From a candidate division WOR-3 bacterium (GTDB lineage Bacteria; Hydrothermota; UBA3072): DNA of 64,000 bases. A program made the position numbers and the translations under genes. The notes beneath the pieces were generated by a model. It was given only the letters and a program-made list of their open reading frames with translations, was not told the origin of the DNA and made no database searches. Positions 9,679 to 49,768 of this stretch are shown one piece after another; positions within the stretch are counted from its first letter, which is position 1, and every line of letters begins with the position of its first letter. Location: contig JAFGHJ010000006.1 of assembly GCA_016930175.1 (NCBI GenBank), positions 1,160-65,159 of the forward strand. The letters are read 5' to 3'.

Positions 9679-9868
9679 TTACCACAGAGGACTCAGAGGA
9701 ATAATTGTGTTAGAAAAGAAAAAAAACACTGAGAACACAGAGAAAAAAACAAAATCTCTGTGGTTAGAATTTCCGGAAGGTTGATGTGTGGGCTCTGTGC
9801 TCTCTGTGAGTCAAGCCAGGGGTGGGTGGGGTTAAACAAAATAAAATCTCTGTGATCTCTGTGGTTAA
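9679..9868. repeat. convergent array of CACAGAG heptad units (plus-oriented copies followed by minus-oriented copies)
   Basis: Plus orientation: ACCACAGAGGACTCAGAGG (9681-9699) and CACTGAGAACACAGAGA (9727-9743). Minus orientation: CTCTGTGGTT (9756-9765), GCTCTGTGCTCTCTGTGAG (9792-9810) and TCTCTGTGATCTCTGTGGTTAA (9847-9868). Confidence 0.8.
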
Positions 9869-13074: not shown

Positions 13075-13093
13075 CCACAGAGGTCACAGAGAA
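13073..13093 (+). repeat. CACAGAG heptad pair overlapping the fprA stop codon
   Basis: AACCACAGAGGTCACAGAGAA is near-identical to the rc of 9847-9868. A C-rich/G-poor tract follows, extending to about 13216. Confidence 0.75.
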
Positions 13094-13255
13094 ATAACAA
13101 TTTATTTAACCACTAAACACACAAAATACACTAAATTTTTATTGTTTTAAACTCCTAACCTCCCAACTTCCTACCATCCTAACTTTTTTTAACAACAAAT
13201 CACACAAATAGCACAGATCTTTTATTTTTTGTTTCTTTTACTCAACCCATGGCCG

Positions 13256-17786: not shown

Positions 17787-18407
17787 ATGGTTGAAGATCA
17801 AATAAAAAGAAGAGGCATTATTGATAAAAGAGTTCTTGCTGCAATGGAAGAAATACCCAGGCATGAATTCGTTGAAGAGGGTCTGAAAGGAGTCGCCTAT
17901 CAGGATGGCCCGCTCCCGATTGGTATGGATCAGACAATATCTCAGCCTTATATTGTCGCTTTGATGTCGGAGCTTCTAGATGTATCCGAAGAAGACAAAG
18001 TGCTTGAAGTTGGTACAGGCAGCGGTTACCAGGCTGCTGTAATTTCACGCTTTGCGATGAGTGTCGTTACAGTAGAAAGAATTCCGGAACTTTATAAAAA
18101 AGCAAAAAAGACCTTGCGAAAATTGGGTTACAATAATATAACTGTAGTGTTGGCGGATGGGAGTATCGGCTACAGGGAATATGCTCCATACAACAGGATA
18201 ATTGTTACAGCTGCTTCTCCTTTTGTGCCAGACGAGCTGATTGAGCAATTAACTGACCCTGGTAAAATAGTTATTCCTGTTGGTGGTATGTTTACTCAGC
18301 AGCTGGTCGTTTTGAAAAAAGAAGCTGGCAAAGTAATCAAAACTGATAGTATCGGAGTAAGATTTGTACCCTTAAAGGGTAGAAAAGGATGGGAAAACGG
18401 GGCGTAG
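17787..18407 (+). CDS. pcm: protein-L-isoaspartate O-methyltransferase
   Basis: TISQPYIVA, VLEVGTGSGYQAA and VRFVPL motifs, with conserved surE-pcm linkage. ATG 17787 (MVEDQ...) is preferred over the TTG at 17730 in the ORF track. Confidence 0.9.
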   Translation: MVEDQIKRRGIIDKRVLAAMEEIPRHEFVEEGLKGVAYQDGPLPIGMDQTISQPYIVALMSELLDVSEEDKVLEVGTGSGYQAAVISRFAMSVVTVERIPELYKKAKKTLRKLGYNNITVVLADGSIGYREYAPYNRIIVTAASPFVPDELIEQLTDPGKIVIPVGGMFTQQLVVLKKEAGKVIKTDSIGVRFVPLKGRKGWENGA

Positions 18408-18472
18408 CGCAGCCCGGTTAGCGCGCCTGCTTCGGGAGCAGGAGGTCGGTGGTTCAAATCCACTCGCCCCGA
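18398..18472 (+). tRNA. tRNA-Pro (anticodon CGG)
   Basis: Same acceptor and T arms as the tRNA at 15410. Anticodon stem CCTGC/GCAGG with loop TTCGGGA. Its first 10 nt overlap the pcm 3' end. Confidence 0.9.
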
Positions 18473-18476
18473 TTTT

Positions 18477-18636
18477 TAACCACAGATCACACAAGATTAA
18501 CACAAGATTATGCCATATATAAATCTAAAAAACAATTTAAACACAGAGAACACAGAGGAGAAAGAACAAATAGAGAAATAAGGAAAATTTTTGTTGTTAG
18601 AAAAATCTGAGTAAATCTGTGAAATCTTGTGGTTAT
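18477..18636. repeat. ~160-bp element of CACAGAT/CACAAGATT/CACAGAG units with inverted ends
   Basis: Left end TAACCACAGATCACACAAGATTAACACAAGATTA. Centre ACACAGAGAACACAGAGGAG (18541-18560). The right end reads ATAACCACAAGATTTCACAGATTTACTCAGATT on the opposite strand. Confidence 0.7.
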
Positions 18637-18657
18637 GAAAAGTTAAGTTAAAAAATT

Positions 18658-32138: not shown

Positions 32139-32981
32139 ATGAATAAAATAGTCACTTATGAACCGGATAATTCAATAAAAAAGGGATATATTTCTTTATG
32201 GAAGGAAATCATCTGGGAGCTGAAACATAATAAGTGGCTTACTCTACAGTTATTTAAACGAGATTTTTCCTCTATTTACAAACAATCTTTGATGGGTGTT
32301 TTTTGGGCTTTTATAGTCCCCTTAATAAGCGTGGGAACATTCATAATACTTAATCGCTCAGGTATCTTCGAATTTGGAGAAATAGAGGTGCCCTATCCTA
32401 TTTATGCGATATTGGGTATGGCTTTCTGGCAAGTGTTCTCGACAGGCTTAATAACCACATCGATTTCCCTGGTTAAAGCCGGCTCAATGCTGGTAAAAAT
32501 AAATTTTTCTAAAAAATCTCTTGTAATTGCATCCGCGGCCCAATCGTTAATACCGTTTATAGTACAGATGATATTAGTAGGGGTTTTATTTGTGGTTTAT
32601 CAGGTCTCCCCAAGCATAAAAATTCTGTTTTTCCCGTTCTTTATGATACCTATAATTTTCTTAACTCTCGGTTTAGGTTTCATTCTATCTCTCTCTAACA
32701 GTGTGGTTAGAGATATCAGTAGTGCCCTATCCGTTTTTATGACTTTTTTCATGTTCTTAACGCCTGTATTATACGCGAAACCTAAAATAGGTGCCCTTGC
32801 TCCCCTTACGAAATTCAATCCCATTTATTATCTGATCTCCATACCTAGGGAACTAATATTAAAGGGCACAATTAGCGAATGGAAGGGTTATTTGTTATCC
32901 GTTGGTTTTTCTTTCATTGTTTTTGGTGTGGGGCTGGTACTTTTTCATCTCACGGAAACCCGAATAACGGAGAGAATATAA
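32139..32981 (+). CDS. wzm: ABC-2 type polysaccharide export permease
   Basis: 280 aa with about 6 TM helices and an N-terminal LFKRDFSSIYKQSLMGVFW motif typical of Wzm/TagG/KpsM permeases. Confidence 0.85.
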   Translation: MNKIVTYEPDNSIKKGYISLWKEIIWELKHNKWLTLQLFKRDFSSIYKQSLMGVFWAFIVPLISVGTFIILNRSGIFEFGEIEVPYPIYAILGMAFWQVFSTGLITTSISLVKAGSMLVKINFSKKSLVIASAAQSLIPFIVQMILVGVLFVVYQVSPSIKILFFPFFMIPIIFLTLGLGFILSLSNSVVRDISSALSVFMTFFMFLTPVLYAKPKIGALAPLTKFNPIYYLISIPRELILKGTISEWKGYLLSVGFSFIVFGVGLVLFHLTETRITERI

Positions 32982-32991
32982 ATATGAAGAA

Positions 32992-33021
32992 GTTGAAAAG
33001 TTGAAGGGTCAAAGAGTTGAA
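32992..33021 (+). repeat. three GTTGAA motifs upstream of the four-helix-bundle gene
   Basis: GTTGAA at 32992, 33000 and 33016. The first two are 8 nt apart. The motif is the reverse complement of the TTCAAC core of the array at 33411-33444. Confidence 0.8.
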
Positions 33022-33043
33022 GAAAATAAAAAATCAAGAATAT

Positions 33044-33406
33044 ATGTTCCCCTTTGAGAAATTAGAAACCTGGCAGCTTGCAAAAGATTTAGCTATAAGT
33101 ATTTATAACATAAGTAAAAATTTCCCAATAGAAGAACAATATGGCTTGGTAAATCAGATAAAACGCGGAGTGATCTCAGTGGCTTCGAATTTGGCTGAAG
33201 GAAGTTCTCGTATTAGCAAAAAAGAACAAGCCCACTTTTCACAAATTTCATATAGCTCTTTAATGGAAGTGATGTGTCAATTAAATATTGCTCTGGAGCT
33301 AGGCTTTATCGAAGAAGAAGAATTTCAAAATTTACGCGAGAAGATAAGAACAGTATCAATCAAGATAAATGCTTTAAGGCGTTCACAGAGAGAAAGAATG
33401 AAATGA
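33044..33406 (+). CDS. four-helix-bundle protein (23S rRNA intervening-sequence protein / Avd-like family)
   Basis: MFPFEKLETWQLAKDL...QIKRGVISVASNLAEGSSR...SYSSLMEV resembles this family's hallmarks. ATG 33044 is preferred over the TTG at 33017. Its stop overlaps the wzt ATG as ATGA. Confidence 0.75.
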   Translation: MFPFEKLETWQLAKDLAISIYNISKNFPIEEQYGLVNQIKRGVISVASNLAEGSSRISKKEQAHFSQISYSSLMEVMCQLNIALELGFIEEEEFQNLREKIRTVSIKINALRRSQRERMK

Positions 33407-34698
33407 AAAACAATTCAACAATTCAACAATTCAACAATTCAACATCAAGTGAAATAGCAATTAAAGTTGAGAACGTTTCAAAAAAATACTGCAAATCTTT
33501 AAGAGGGTCTATGCTTTATGGCATGAAAGACATCGCCAGGAATTCTTTAGGCTTGAGTTCTAACTCTCATATTTTACGAAAAGACGAATTCTGGGCGGTA
33601 GACGATGTTTCTTTCGAAGTCAAAAAAGGAGAAACTTTAGGTATTATAGGAGCCAACGGAGCCGGCAAGACTACGATTCTAAAAATGTTGAATGGTATAT
33701 TTTGGCCGGATAAAGGTAAAATAACAATTAAAGGTAGAGTTGGCGCTTTGATTGCAGTTGGCGCGGGATTTCATCCGATGTTAACGGGAAGGGAGAATAT
33801 TTATCTAAATGGCGCAATACTGGGCATGAGTAGAAAAGAAGTCAATAAAAAATTTGGTGCAATAGTCGAATTTGCTGATATTGGGGATTTTTTAGACACC
33901 CCAGTAAAATTTTATTCCAGTGGTATGTTCGTCAGACTAGGCTTTTCCATTGCAGTACACTGTGAGCTAGATATATTATTGGTGGATGAGGTGCTGGCGG
34001 TGGGGGACCTTTCGTTTCAAAACAAAAGCCTTCGAAGATTAGCTGAGCTCCGAGAGAAAGCAAATGCTGTAGTCTTTGTCAGTCATAATTTGGAACACGT
34101 GAGAAATCTGTGCGACAGAGTTATGGTTTTGGATAAAGCTAAGATAGTATTCTCAGGAGATACTAATGAAGCTTTATCAGAGTACCACGAAAGGACACGT
34201 GAAAAGAAATTAATTGTTATTAAAAATAGAAAAGCTTTTCATTCAGCTTTACATCAATCTTCAGGGGACATAATTTTCGGTGACACAGGCATTTCAGACG
34301 AATCTGGTAACAGAACTGAGAAGATTAGACTTGGAGAAACACTTACAACTTTCTTTGAATTTGAAACAACAAAAAAACTTGAGGAACTCTTTTTTACAAT
34401 TGGGATTAGGGATGAAAGGAACTACAATTGTATAGTACATATAAGCGATTACGCCGATAAAATCAAATTTAGAAATATCTCGAAAGGTAAATACAGGTTA
34501 ATTGTGAAATTCATAACACCAAATTTGGTTCCCGGGTTGTACTTCCCTGTAATCGCTATAAGAAATGGAGTGACCAATGAAACCTATGAGAGAATATTTG
34601 ACTTAAAACCGTTTATCATTGAAGGTAATATACTCCCAAGAGGGATAGTATATACCGAAAGCGAATGGAAGTTATGCCCAATTTCAGAAAGAGATTAA
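33403..34698 (+). CDS. wzt: polysaccharide ABC exporter ATP-binding protein with a ~180-aa C-terminal extension
   Basis: Walker A GANGAGKTT, signature YSSGM, Walker B ILLVDE, then a beta-rich C-terminal domain. ATG 33403 is preferred because the conserved IAIKVENVSKKY block starts 17 codons later. The start at 33274 in the ORF track would overlap the upstream gene. Confidence 0.9.
   Translation: MKNNSTIQQFNNSTSSEIAIKVENVSKKYCKSLRGSMLYGMKDIARNSLGLSSNSHILRKDEFWAVDDVSFEVKKGETLGIIGANGAGKTTILKMLNGIFWPDKGKITIKGRVGALIAVGAGFHPMLTGRENIYLNGAILGMSRKEVNKKFGAIVEFADIGDFLDTPVKFYSSGMFVRLGFSIAVHCELDILLVDEVLAVGDLSFQNKSLRRLAELREKANAVVFVSHNLEHVRNLCDRVMVLDKAKIVFSGDTNEALSEYHERTREKKLIVIKNRKAFHSALHQSSGDIIFGDTGISDESGNRTEKIRLGETLTTFFEFETTKKLEELFFTIGIRDERNYNCIVHISDYADKIKFRNISKGKYRLIVKFITPNLVPGLYFPVIAIRNGVTNETYERIFDLKPFIIEGNILPRGIVYTESEWKLCPISERD
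33411..33444 (+). repeat. perfect tandem octanucleotide repeat, (CAATTCAA)x4 plus CA
   Basis: Units at 33411, 33419, 33427 and 33435, lying in codons 3-14 of wzt. Confidence 0.95.
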
Positions 34699-49640: not shown

Positions 49641-49740
49641 GAGTGTTTGTTAAGAAGTGTTTGGTCTCCAGATTTAACTTTTTAGTTGGTTGGGGTGGAG
49701 TTAAAAAACAAAATAAATTAGAAGGTTGAGAGTGGAGTGA

Positions 49741-49768
49741 CTCCGTGTCCTCTGTGTCTCTGTGTGAG
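49741..49768 (-). repeat. CACAGAG heptad triplet in minus orientation
   Basis: The rc reads CTCACACAGAGACACAGAGGACACGGAG. It lies between the divergent pfkA and glyA promoters. Confidence 0.75.

Follow-up and report, generated by a model that had tools for sequence, protein, structure and literature searches.

A probable mobile intercistronic cassette, built like the ORF-bearing intervening sequences of 23S rRNA, in a wzm-wzt exporter operon

The intervening sequences (IVSs) of 23S rRNA and the S23p ORFs associated with them have been a curiosity for thirty years, as to both their origin and their function. ORF-bearing 23S IVSs occur in Coxiella burnetii, Leptospira, Xanthomonas and Brucella, where they occupy helix 9, 25 or 45. 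In Bacteroidota, cyanobacteria and many other phyla, few uncharacterised genes are as common as the four-helix-bundle genes and the GxxExxY genes, two very large families. In the window (the whole stretch of 64,000 nucleotides that was analysed), one such four-helix-bundle gene lies between wzm and wzt, the genes of an O-antigen-type ABC exporter, and raises the question of what a gene of this family is doing there and what the inverted arrays of short repeats on either side of it represent. The original prediction, made from the letters alone, had placed the gene in the four-helix-bundle family that includes the 23S-IVS proteins and Avd, and had likened the layout to an rRNA IVS; the family, the placement, the arrays and the likeness to an IVS have stood, and an Avd identity has not. 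With moderate confidence, we read the segment as a mobile intercistronic cassette, built like the ORF-bearing 23S IVSs and lodged in the exporter operon.

The cassette is about 475 bp long and fills the junction between the wzm stop codon (TAA, 32979-32981) and the wzt start, with its parts collected in Table 1. All positions given earlier for the hexamers, the wzm stop, the ORF and the wzt start agree with the sequence, as does the location of the gene between wzm and wzt with an ATGA overlap of stop and start, in which the ORF ends at the TGA of 33404-33406. Beyond wzm and wzt, which flank it directly, come genes for methyltransferases and glycosyltransferases. A promoter and terminator scan found no promoter-like or terminator-like site within the cassette, from which its co-transcription with wzm-wzt may be inferred, and a reading of the A-rich leader found no clear Shine-Dalgarno sequence. 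Rfam returned no rRNA or other family on 32500-33900, apart from a sub-threshold plant miRNA match, which we take as chance. By tblastn, the 64-kb window holds no further four-helix-bundle or GxxExxY gene. The surroundings of the cassette yielded no recombinase, transposase or target-site duplication, and no RAYT was found with it. A reading as an integron cassette was discarded, since an integrase and a lone attC-like palindrome on the 3' side are both missing and arms stand on both sides of the ORF.

Table 1. Features of the cassette and its two host genes, in window positions
Feature	Positions	Strand	Description
wzm (ABC-2 permease), upstream host gene	32139..32981	+	PF01061 ABC2_membrane, E 1.3e-10
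Whole cassette	32982..33456	+	Segment swapped or transferred as one unit
wzt-start relic	32985..33005	+	ATG 3 nt past the wzm stop, 6-codon ORF MKKLKS*
5' arm	32989..33021	+	Period-8 array, GTTGAA cores at 32992, 33000 and 33016; C-poor
A-rich leader	33022..33043	+	Between 5' arm and cassette ORF, read from the sequence
Four-helix-bundle (S23p / 23S-IVS-protein family) gene	33044..33406	+	120 aa; matches PF05635, TIGR02436 and PDB 2GSC
wzt (ABC ATPase + Wzt C-terminal domain), downstream host gene	33403..34698	+	PF00005, E 8.8e-20; PF14524 Wzt_C, E 5.5e-11
Present wzt start codon	33403..33405	+	Supplied by the cassette; overlaps the cassette ORF stop (ATGA)
3' arm	33409..33446	+	Perfect (AACAATTC)x4.5 array, TTCAAC cores at 33414, 33422, 33430 and 33438

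The assignment of the protein to the four-helix-bundle family was upheld by profile search. Its translation matches PF05635 over profile positions 1-105 of 106 (E 1.2e-32, 112.7 bits vs a cut-off of 33.8), TIGR02436 (E 1.3e-29, 102.6 bits vs a cut-off of 24) and, over residues 3-118, PDB 2GSC (E 3.1e-20). The latter is XCC0516, described as a homopentameric toroid in work cited in PMC4990558 and the one member whose oligomeric state is known. The conserved RxxxSxxxNxxE motif described for the family (PMC3936711) is present as RGVISVASNLAE. Against the relatives numbered L004 and L007, the cassette ORF has a dN/dS of 0.09-0.12, and the protein is maintained by purifying selection. PF05635 also catches Avd-like proteins (PMC10053308), and the Avd of DGRs shares the four-helix-bundle superfamily with the cassette protein. 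However, the protein reaches only 20.6 bits on the Avd equivalog NF033474, against a cut-off of 80, and its neighbours are the exporter genes, with no reverse transcriptase and no template/variable repeats adjacent, which rules out Avd and a DGR. PADLOC gave no match for the four-helix-bundle protein and, on the GxxExxY proteins, only a faint Cas4-like PD-(D/E)XK similarity; a defence-system reading gains no support from it.

The 3' array is the top-scoring tandem repeat of the entire 64-kb window (match at 33409-33444, period 8, 4.5 copies, 100% matches, score 72), and it is devoid of G and leaves all three frames open. Upstream, the array has an imperfect period of 8 over 32985-33024, with a degenerate unit, GGGTCAAA, at about 33006-33013, and the two arms form an inverted pair (I1) of 33 nt, 73% complementary. 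The hexamers themselves are not enriched across the window, where GTTGAA has 22 copies vs 23.6 expected by composition and TTCAAC has 20 vs 19.4; the signal is their clustering and inverted arrangement, not their window-wide number. When 32982-33043 is folded against 33400-33460, the arm duplex has a predicted energy of -23.1 kcal/mol, vs -9.9 +/- 2.5 kcal/mol for dinucleotide shuffles (z = -5.2, none of 500 as good), and three 6-bp GUUGAA/UUCAAC helices are present in both the MFE and the centroid folds of 32970-33460. The folding free energy of the whole 491-nt region, in which the 360-nt ORF interior dominates, is ordinary (z = -0.06). The stem is weak, with about 22 bp in 6-bp blocks broken by 2x2 purine loops.

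Comparison among relatives shows that the arms are conserved. The GTTGAA cores of the 5' arm are kept in L002-L008, with one 8-nt unit fewer in L002 and four in-phase units in L004, two of which read GTTGAG and would form G.U pairs with the 3' arm. Across five distinct alleles, no core column of the 3' arm varies (0 of 24), vs 3 of 8 spacer columns (Fisher p = 0.011), and the coding arm has exactly four units in all five, with the reservation that consensus assemblies would hide minor variants of unit number. The cores are invariant and the spacers variable among alleles whose cassette ORFs have a dS of about 1, and the invariance of the cores extends to synonymous sites. The inverted arrays of the original prediction are real, pair beyond chance and persist in diverged relatives, and neither a mismatch to the protein family nor a loss of the flanking motifs or of a stable helix was encountered.

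The 3' arm is read as wzt codons 4-14 (NSTIQQFNNST), and a comparison of the N-termini of 120 homologues shows that the cassette encodes a 14-aa extension of Wzt. The closest Wzt without the window cassette, which is 99% identical (L010), begins MNEDIAIKV, and the window sequence offers no alternative in-frame ATG, GTG or TTG upstream of the conserved IAIKVENVSKKY. The ATGA arrangement recurs in L002-L009 but is rare in the wider family (4/84), so that this form of coupling is peculiar to the cassettes between wzm and wzt. Because the 3' arm is part of the wzt coding sequence, a cut within it would separate wzt from its start codon, and productive processing of the rRNA style is therefore not the whole story.

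Comparison of the wzm-wzt junctions in relatives found loci with and without the cassette, which fixes the exact ends of the element; in L002-L009 and L093-L101, the 280-aa Wzm orthologue shows 80-83% identity. The empty junctions (L094, L098-L100) read TAA-T-ATG-GAA-AAC-GAT-TTT-GCA. In the filled ones, the old ATG is kept as the 6-codon relic and a new wzt ATG is gained; the relic ATG stands where the empty sites have their wzt ATG, and its short ORF ends within the second GTTGAA unit. The relic sequence ATGAAGAAGTTGAA is unchanged in every window-type allele, and the relic ORF may itself be translated. The slot can be empty, or hold the window cassette, another four-helix-bundle cassette, or a GxxExxY gene, which is unrelated to the four-helix-bundle gene and has inverted arrays of its own. 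The GxxExxY (TIGR04256) gene fills the slot in L010 and L102, within flanks 99% identical to those of the window, and one strain bearing such a gene has wzm and wzt 99-100% identical to the window's. Between the window and L010, the match is complete up to 32981 and resumes in full at 33457, with unrelated sequence between these points. The converse holds for L002, in which the cassette is 98.9% identical (dS 0.029) whereas wzm and wzt are 78-79% identical (wzm dS 1.46); identity is 96-100% from about 32976 to 33461 and falls off at both cassette edges to about 78%. A nearly identical cassette inside such diverged flanks implies movement as a unit. The cassette is a discrete, horizontally exchanged unit, and the slot one that accepts alternative cassettes. 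Five lineages or more (window type, L013/L105, L093 and L106 among them) have a four-helix-bundle gene stably positioned between wzm and wzt.

The architecture is not confined to this exporter. We surveyed 82 homologous genes in 79 genomes against 430 control ORFs, with a score of at least 24 as the threshold for complementary flanks. Flanks reached it in 77% of the family genes vs 2.3% of the controls (p = 1.7e-28), and tandem arrays, mainly of period 7-8, flank 55% of the family genes vs 9% of the controls. The 5' arms contain 5% C and the 3' arms 6% G, and a C-poor 5' arm with a G-poor 3' arm is present in 67 of 69 cassettes. The start codon follows the end of the 5' arm at a median of 28 nt, both neighbouring genes lie on the cassette strand in 61 of 73 cases, and the gaps are about 65 nt. 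Of the 69 cassettes, 14, spread over different phyla, share the GTTGAA/TTCAAC cores, and 15-19 have cores of GTTTA type. Near-perfect arms of 27-30 bp are present in L050 and L092. Host junctions elsewhere include atpA/atpG, serC/serA, rmlB/rmlA, POR alpha/beta and efflux pumps; carriers of the serC/serA or efflux arrangement (L072, L031 and L074 types) occur among Bacteroidales or Flavobacteriaceae. No rRNA was found by Rfam at the 19 related loci checked, and those cassettes are therefore not classical IVSs. Thus an array, an ORF and an inverted array form a general architecture of the four-helix-bundle gene family across many bacterial phyla. Over 73 cassettes, the arm mismatches comprise 85 G.U and 111 A.C (p = 0.07, in the opposite direction), and in having no G.U excess they do not demonstrate RNA-level selection for pairing; selection on a helix of the sense-strand RNA would predict otherwise, which speaks against a purely RNA-based reading. 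A literature search, which did not extend to the original Leptospira IVS papers, found no account of such cassettes in mRNA operons, while one paper noted 23S_rRNA_IVP genes between cas genes (PMC3936711).

The likeness of the layout to an rRNA IVS holds part by part when compared with the S23p-bearing 23S IVS of Coxiella, which is 428-444 nt long, with a purine-rich start, complementary ends and excision by RNase III (PMC4990558). The window cassette is of similar size (about 475 bp), and both enclose a sense-strand S23p (PF05635) ORF between complementary ends, with a weak Shine-Dalgarno sequence. In Coxiella, two to four tandem heptamers, variable in number among strains, precede the ORF (PMC4990558); the window cassette likewise has a purine-rich start and, ahead of the ORF, tandem repeats of a short unit whose number differs (3-4 units in the window type, one fewer in L002). 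Sporadic distribution and horizontal transfer are also shared. However, the window cassette sits at a junction of a protein-coding operon and not in 23S rRNA, and its stem of 6-bp blocks with 2x2 loops is weaker than the near-perfect 28-bp stem of Coxiella (PMC4990558). Its 3' arm is translated within the downstream host gene, to which the cassette supplies the start codon. RNase III excision, the property that defines an IVS, would here disable wzt instead of sparing host function. An RNase III-cut stem between wzm and wzt is suggested only by analogy.

From these observations, a working model of the cassette can be conceived. Without a promoter or terminator of its own, it would be transcribed as part of the operon mRNA. 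Each arm is a tandem array of 8-nt units that uses three of the four letters, with almost no C in the 5' arm and no G in the 3' arm, so that neither could fold strongly upon itself and good pairing would be possible only with the other. Once the 3' arm has been transcribed, the arms may zip into a helix of about 30 nt, with the four-helix-bundle ORF looped out and the wzm stop brought beside the body of wzt. The ORF would be translated within the loop from the A-rich leader, and ribosomes ending at the cassette UGA would restart at the overlapping AUG and continue through the 3' arm into wzt, which would make Wzt synthesis dependent on the cassette. On untranslated transcripts, the helix could form and become a candidate substrate of RNase III, as in the rRNA IVSs. 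The arms may also delimit the unit that is exchanged between genomes. The cassette protein presumably serves the element, through nucleic-acid binding or mobility, and not O-antigen export. Against the model count the weakness of the helix, the ordinary folding energy of the region as a whole, the position of the 3' arm in the wzt frame and the lack of a G.U excess among arm mismatches.

Other readings have to be weighed against this model. One, which we consider unlikely, is that the arms act in DNA, as terminal inverted arrays that provide several short sites for binding, or that form a hairpin or cruciform when the DNA is single-stranded. The cassette would then be inserted, excised or copied by a trans-acting recombinase or nuclease or, in the GxxExxY cassettes, by their own PD-(D/E)XK protein, and any RNA helix would be a by-product. 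It accords with a cassette that travels as a precisely bounded unit, with a mismatch spectrum that shows no wobble preference and resembles the neutral decay of a once-perfect inverted repeat, and with the shared architecture of an unrelated cassette that encodes a nuclease-fold protein. The cores, both GTTGAA/TTCAAC and GTTTA-type, are moreover conserved as sequences and not merely as pairs, even within the wzt reading frame. Yet no recombinase, transposase or target-site duplication was seen next to the cassette, 7-8 nt is a short period for protein sites repeated along duplex DNA, and the rRNA-borne relatives are processed as RNA. The strand asymmetry of the arms and the co-orientation of the host genes also point to a function of one strand, most simply in the transcript. 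At the other extreme, the view that the repeats are functionless, a product of chance or of slippage in AT-rich DNA beside an ordinary small gene, is hardly credible. The window is indeed AT-rich (37% G+C) with many weak tandem repeats, and the hexamers are at their expected number, but chance does not account for a pairing that no shuffle attained, for cores invariant at synonymous sites in diverged alleles, or for the same architecture around 77% of homologous genes vs 2% of controls.

Two further readings assign the cassette a role in export. The protein could be dedicated to the Wzm/Wzt exporter, as its accessory or regulator, with the arrays as its binding sites or as a translational control of the Wzm:Wzt ratio, an improbable proposal despite the purifying selection on the gene, its stable placement in several lineages and the overlap of its stop with the wzt start. 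Close relatives export with an empty junction, an unrelated GxxExxY gene can take the slot even where wzm and wzt are nearly identical to the window's, and homologous cassettes sit in unrelated operons, among them atpA/atpG, serC/serA, rmlB/rmlA and efflux pumps. The family, too, was first known from within rRNA genes (PMC4990558). The slots that are empty or otherwise filled, together with the unrelated operons that host homologues, led to the rejection of the dedicated accessory. It is still less probable that the 8-nt tract in the first wzt codons is a contingency repeat, whose gain or loss of units would shift the frame of wzt and toggle O-antigen export by phase variation. A perfect repeat of 4.5 copies whose unit length is not divisible by three, located where the coding sequence of a surface-polysaccharide gene begins, does recall a contingency locus, and a one-unit indel is seen in the non-coding 5' arm of L002. 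The tract, however, is fixed at four units in all five alleles despite the ORF dS of about 1 (although low-frequency switching could be masked in consensus assemblies), and four units are short for a slippage-prone tract. It is, furthermore, one half of an inverted pair that mirrors the upstream array, and the same inverted design surrounds homologues in which neither arm is coding.

The model of a mobile, IVS-like cassette can be extended, with considerable reserve, to a wider and rather doubtful proposal. The four-helix-bundle and GxxExxY genes would be carried as cargo by a single class of intercistronic elements, so far unrecognised, that propagate themselves and are defined by three-letter inverted arrays of period 7 or 8, of which the rRNA IVSs were the first members to be noticed, and the encoded protein would act on the arrays to move the cassette. 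One possibility is retro-homing into stop/start junctions, in which a trans-acting reverse transcriptase is brought to the looped-out RNA by the Avd-like four-helix-bundle protein; the PD-(D/E)XK protein may do the equivalent job as a nuclease.

The locus and its relatives form a clean set of junctions with, without and with an alternative to the cassette, and reveal its unit-wise exchange. The same architecture, with tandem 7-8-nt units, a C-free 5' arm and a G-free 3' arm, surrounds most family members, inside housekeeping operons. A vague annotation thereby becomes a testable model of a mobile, operon-riding cassette, and assays of RNase III cleavage, of binding and of mobility gain concrete substrates. 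Two points concern annotation: a repeat arm, once translated, can appear as an N-terminal extension of the downstream gene, and small four-helix-bundle or GxxExxY genes in cas, polysaccharide and other operons need not share the function of the operon.

Other repeats are known between the genes of operons. REP/BIME elements and MITEs are multi-copy, imperfect inverted repeats that sometimes affect mRNA stability, and they are non-coding, family-specific palindromes, whereas the window cassette has tandem three-letter arrays around a conserved protein gene. The STRR (short tandemly repeated repetitive) hairpins of filamentous cyanobacteria, built of tandem units about 7 bp long, lie between genes that are transcribed together, hupS/hupL for example, and have been proposed to act in transcript stability or translational coupling (PMC2670836). 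The window cassette resembles them in its 8-nt units, its inverted arrays and its site at an operon junction; unlike the STRRs, which have no ORF between their arms and are described from one phylum, it carries an ORF, and its host is not a cyanobacterium. The STRRs may be linked to the four-helix-bundle and GxxExxY cassettes. Elsewhere in the window, ORF-less CACAGAG/CTCTGTG hairpins also resemble STRR hairpins.

The arrangement at the wzm-wzt junction is real, and it is best filed as an intervening sequence (IVS)-type cassette within an mRNA operon. The original prediction placed a gene of the Avd/IVS family between wzm and wzt, bracketed by inverted GTTGAA/TTCAAC arrays, and all of its coordinates were verified by re-reading the sequence. 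Its family assignment holds for the four-helix-bundle proteins, with matches to PF05635 (E 1.2e-32), TIGR02436 'four helix bundle protein' (E 1.3e-29) and XCC0516 (PDB 2GSC, solved and homopentameric; E 3e-20). Strict Avd identity was rejected, the score being 20.6 bits against a cut-off of 80, with no reverse transcriptase nearby. Relative to orthologues 80-83% identical, dN/dS is 0.09-0.12, and the protein is thus maintained by selection.

Features of the cassette, of alternative occupants of its slot and of related hairpins (window positions unless a locus is named)
Feature	Position	Strand	Basis or remark
wzm	stop TAA 32979-32981	+	PF01061
Four-helix-bundle ORF, 120 aa	33044-33406	+	ORF reading
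wzt	ATG at 33403	+	PF00005 + PF14524
GTTGAA copies	starts 32992, 33000, 33016	+	upstream array
TTCAAC copies	starts 33414, 33422, 33430, 33438	+	downstream array
GxxExxY cassettes in wzm-wzt slot	L010:145-685; L102; L011:569-1035; L101:3841-4320; L096/L097
ORF-less hairpins	9681-9865; ~18478-18633 (just past tRNA-Pro 18398-18472); 13075-13095; 49737-49765

The downstream array (33409-33444; period 8, 4.5 perfect copies, score 72) is the top tandem repeat of the 64-kb window. There is no window-wide excess of GTTGAA (22 against 23.6 expected) or TTCAAC (20 against 19.4), and the peculiarity of these motifs is their clustering and mirror arrangement. Folded against each other, the flanks reach -23.1 kcal/mol, compared with -9.9 +/- 2.5 for dinucleotide shuffles, none of 500 being equally good. 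Three 6-bp helices appear in both the MFE and centroid structures of 32970-33460, and the free energy of this whole 491-nt stretch is ordinary (z = -0.06). The TGA of the cassette ORF overlaps the wzt ATG. The working start codon is supplied by the cassette, and the 3' arm is translated as wzt codons 4-14 (NSTIQQFNNST); wzt has no in-frame alternative start ahead of the conserved IAIKVENVSKKY. Another ATG at 32985, 3 nt after the wzm stop, occupies the position of the wzt ATG in empty sites. This relic opens a six-codon ORF (MKKLKS*, 32985-33005) ending in the second repeat unit; it is kept in all window-type alleles, with an 8-nt deletion in the related locus L002 shifting its stop to TAA.

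Among relatives (numbered L loci) gathered with the cassette protein, Wzt and Wzm as queries, the junction exists in four states. The empty state reads TAA-T-ATG-GAA-AAC-GAT-TTT-GCA... (L094, L098, L099, L100), and the window itself, L001-L009 and L095 hold the window-type cassette. Different four-helix-bundle cassettes carry either many GTTGAA/GTTGAG units upstream and TTCAAC/CTCAAC downstream (L013, L105) or ATGAGT-type units upstream and ACTCAT-type downstream (L093, L106). In the fourth state (L010/L102, L011/L012, L101 and L096/L097) the slot holds an unrelated gene, TIGR04256 'GxxExxY' / PF13366 PDDEXK_3 (E 5e-46), with inverted arrays of its own (CGCAAAG/CTTTGCG or CACAGAT/ATCTGTG units). 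This ORF is lengthened at its N terminus, starting from the old wzt ATG, and the 5' arm lies within the added stretch; the 3' arm precedes a new wzt ATG. The match in L096 and L097 is split in two (residues 1-67 and 85-138), and this ORF may therefore be a decaying copy.

The 3' arm is translated in the other four-helix-bundle cassettes too and lengthens the N terminus of Wzt by as many as 55 residues, with abundant N, S, T and Q; the closest Wzt without a window-type cassette begins MNEDIAIKV. Seven Wzt homologues (P0127, P0128, P0132, P0148, P0156, P0168, P0170) also begin with an extra 26-55 residues in which N, S, T, Q and P abound; these stretches are translated TTCAAC- or ACTCAT-type repeat arms. 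In gene calls, such extensions are an annotation signature of these cassettes. In L013, two unlike arrays (1574-1765) stand in series upstream of one four-helix-bundle gene, the inner of GTTGAA units and the outer of (A/G)ATGAGT(A/G) units as in the L093 and L106 arms. The outer array has no downstream partner and may be the residual 5' arm of an earlier cassette.

The cassette is a discrete, horizontally exchanged element at a stop/start junction. L010 and L102, whose wzm and wzt are 99-100% identical to those of the window, set its limits at 32982-33456, since identity runs through 32981, is lost over 32982-33456 and resumes from 33457. The cassette ORFs of the window and L002 share 98.9% identity (dS 0.029), compared with 78-79% for wzm and wzt (wzm dS 1.46). 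Scanned in 50-nt steps of sequence, identity stays at 96-100% between ~33000 and 33449, with edges at ~32976 and ~33461 (point mismatches) and 66-88% outside. L004 and L007 show the same steep drop at the right edge, and a recombination breakpoint within the cassette ORF. Taken together, these identity edges and the L010 case show that a precisely bounded unit is exchanged among diverged copies of the junction. The Wzt of the window (33454-34698) is only 53-54% identical to those of L004 (5426-6646) and L007 (5411-6628), against 80-83% for Wzm and the cassette protein. The wzt gene, with its glycan-binding C-terminal domain, was replaced or diverged on a course separate from that of wzm and the cassette, the behaviour expected of genes that determine serotype.

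The inverted tandem arrays that form the cassette ends are constrained in sequence. Across five distinct window-type alleles (ORF dS ~1), the 3' arm is invariant in all 24 core columns, and variation is seen in three of the eight spacer columns (Fisher p = 0.011), one of which carries a non-synonymous change. Among the invariant core positions, eight fall at third-codon sites. The 5' cores are conserved as well. The 5' arm of L002 is short by exactly one 8-nt unit, and that of L004 has four in-phase units, two altered to GTTGAG, which can still pair with UUCAAC via G.U.

This design is family-wide. A protein profile run against one genome per GTDB species gave 79 loci with 82 genes (35-64% identity), mostly from Bacteroidota, and also from Verrucomicrobia, Acidobacteria, Desulfuromonadales, Clostridia, Planctomycetes and Melainabacteria. 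When the 110 nt preceding the start are compared with the 110 nt following the stop, local complementarity scores at least 24 in 77% of family genes and in 2.3% of the 430 control ORFs drawn from these loci (Mann-Whitney p = 1.7e-28). Under a strict test, tandem arrays adjoin 55% of family genes, compared with 9% for the control ORFs (odds ratio 12, p = 1.7e-19). The period is mostly 7 or 8, the most frequent 5' cores are GTTTAG, GTTTAA, GTTTAT, GTTGAA (14 of 69 cassettes) and GTTGAT, and the median arm is 35 nt, the 5' arm ending ~28 nt ahead of the start codon and the 3' arm starting ~2 nt past the stop. Arms are written in three letters (5.3% C in 5' arms, 6.0% G in 3' arms), with a G+T-rich 5' arm in 67/69 cassettes. 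The two flanking genes are co-oriented in 61 of 73 cases, with gaps of ~65 nt. They are ordinary operon partners: atpA-atpG, serC-serA (twice), rmlB-rmlA, MacB-MacB, two 2-oxoacid:ferredoxin oxidoreductase subunits, and OEP-MFP-RND with two cassettes. No rRNA was present in the 19 survey loci checked. The window cassette is an unusually informative example of the architecture seen around the majority of genes in a very large, uncharacterised family. Pairs of four-helix-bundle cassettes lying within 8 kb were seen in L037, L063, L042, L026 and L074; the pair in L074 (2364-2723, 3995-4357) occupies consecutive junctions of a single efflux operon (OEP, MFP, RND). In L014 (3900-4460), GGTTGAT/GGTGGAT units on both sides of the gene are direct, and their high duplex score comes from pairs of the G.U type. 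The locus may depart from the inverted design, or the units may form the 5' arm of an adjacent element.

The IVS of Coxiella burnetii, in helix 45 of 23S rRNA, is 428-444 nt long, starts with AGAAGA and two to four tandem GACAGAT heptamers (the count strain-dependent), and contains an S23p ORF whose ribosome-binding site is poor. Its terminal inverted repeats close it off in a 28-bp stem, in which the sites of in vitro excision by RNase III have been mapped (PMC4990558). The IVS analogy of the original prediction is apt; the window cassette matches every part save the rRNA host and demonstrated cleavage. Promoter and terminator matches were absent inside the cassette on scanning, so it would be transcribed along with the operon. 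The three-letter arms would be unable to fold on themselves and would pair solely with each other, looping out the ORF, which would be translated from its A-rich leader. After terminating at UGA, ribosomes would re-initiate at the AUG that overlaps it and continue through the 3' arm into wzt. In transcripts that are not being translated, the helix may form and be a candidate for an RNase III cut.

Under a simple RNase III model, the arm helix may be cut in the transcript. However, the helix of the window cassette is weak, a cut within the 3' arm would separate wzt from its start codon, and G.U mismatches (85) are not above A.C (111) in 73 cassettes. For these reasons the main rival gives the arms a role in mobility, acting as DNA or single-stranded DNA. 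Against it, the strand asymmetry and the shared orientation of cassettes and host genes argue for the importance of one particular strand. A dedicated exporter accessory is poorly supported in view of the empty and alternative junction states, as is a phase-variation tract in the comparison of the five alleles; so is chance, given the shuffles and the survey controls.

Four-helix-bundle genes between cas genes were noted before and interpreted as functional partners (PMC3936711). Our literature search, which covered work other than the original Leptospira IVS papers, found no account of these genes as bounded tandem-arm cassettes in mRNA operons. In cyanobacteria, STRR form 7-bp tandem-repeat hairpins between co-transcribed genes (PMC2670836). 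These are resembled by ORF-less intergenic hairpins in the window, with tandem CACAGAG/CTCTGTG units and ACCACAGAG...CTCTGTGGT ends, which also resemble the GxxExxY cassette arms of L010 and L011. Segment 9670-9875 folds at -55 kcal/mol (z = -3.7), and 18466-18640 at z = -2.3.
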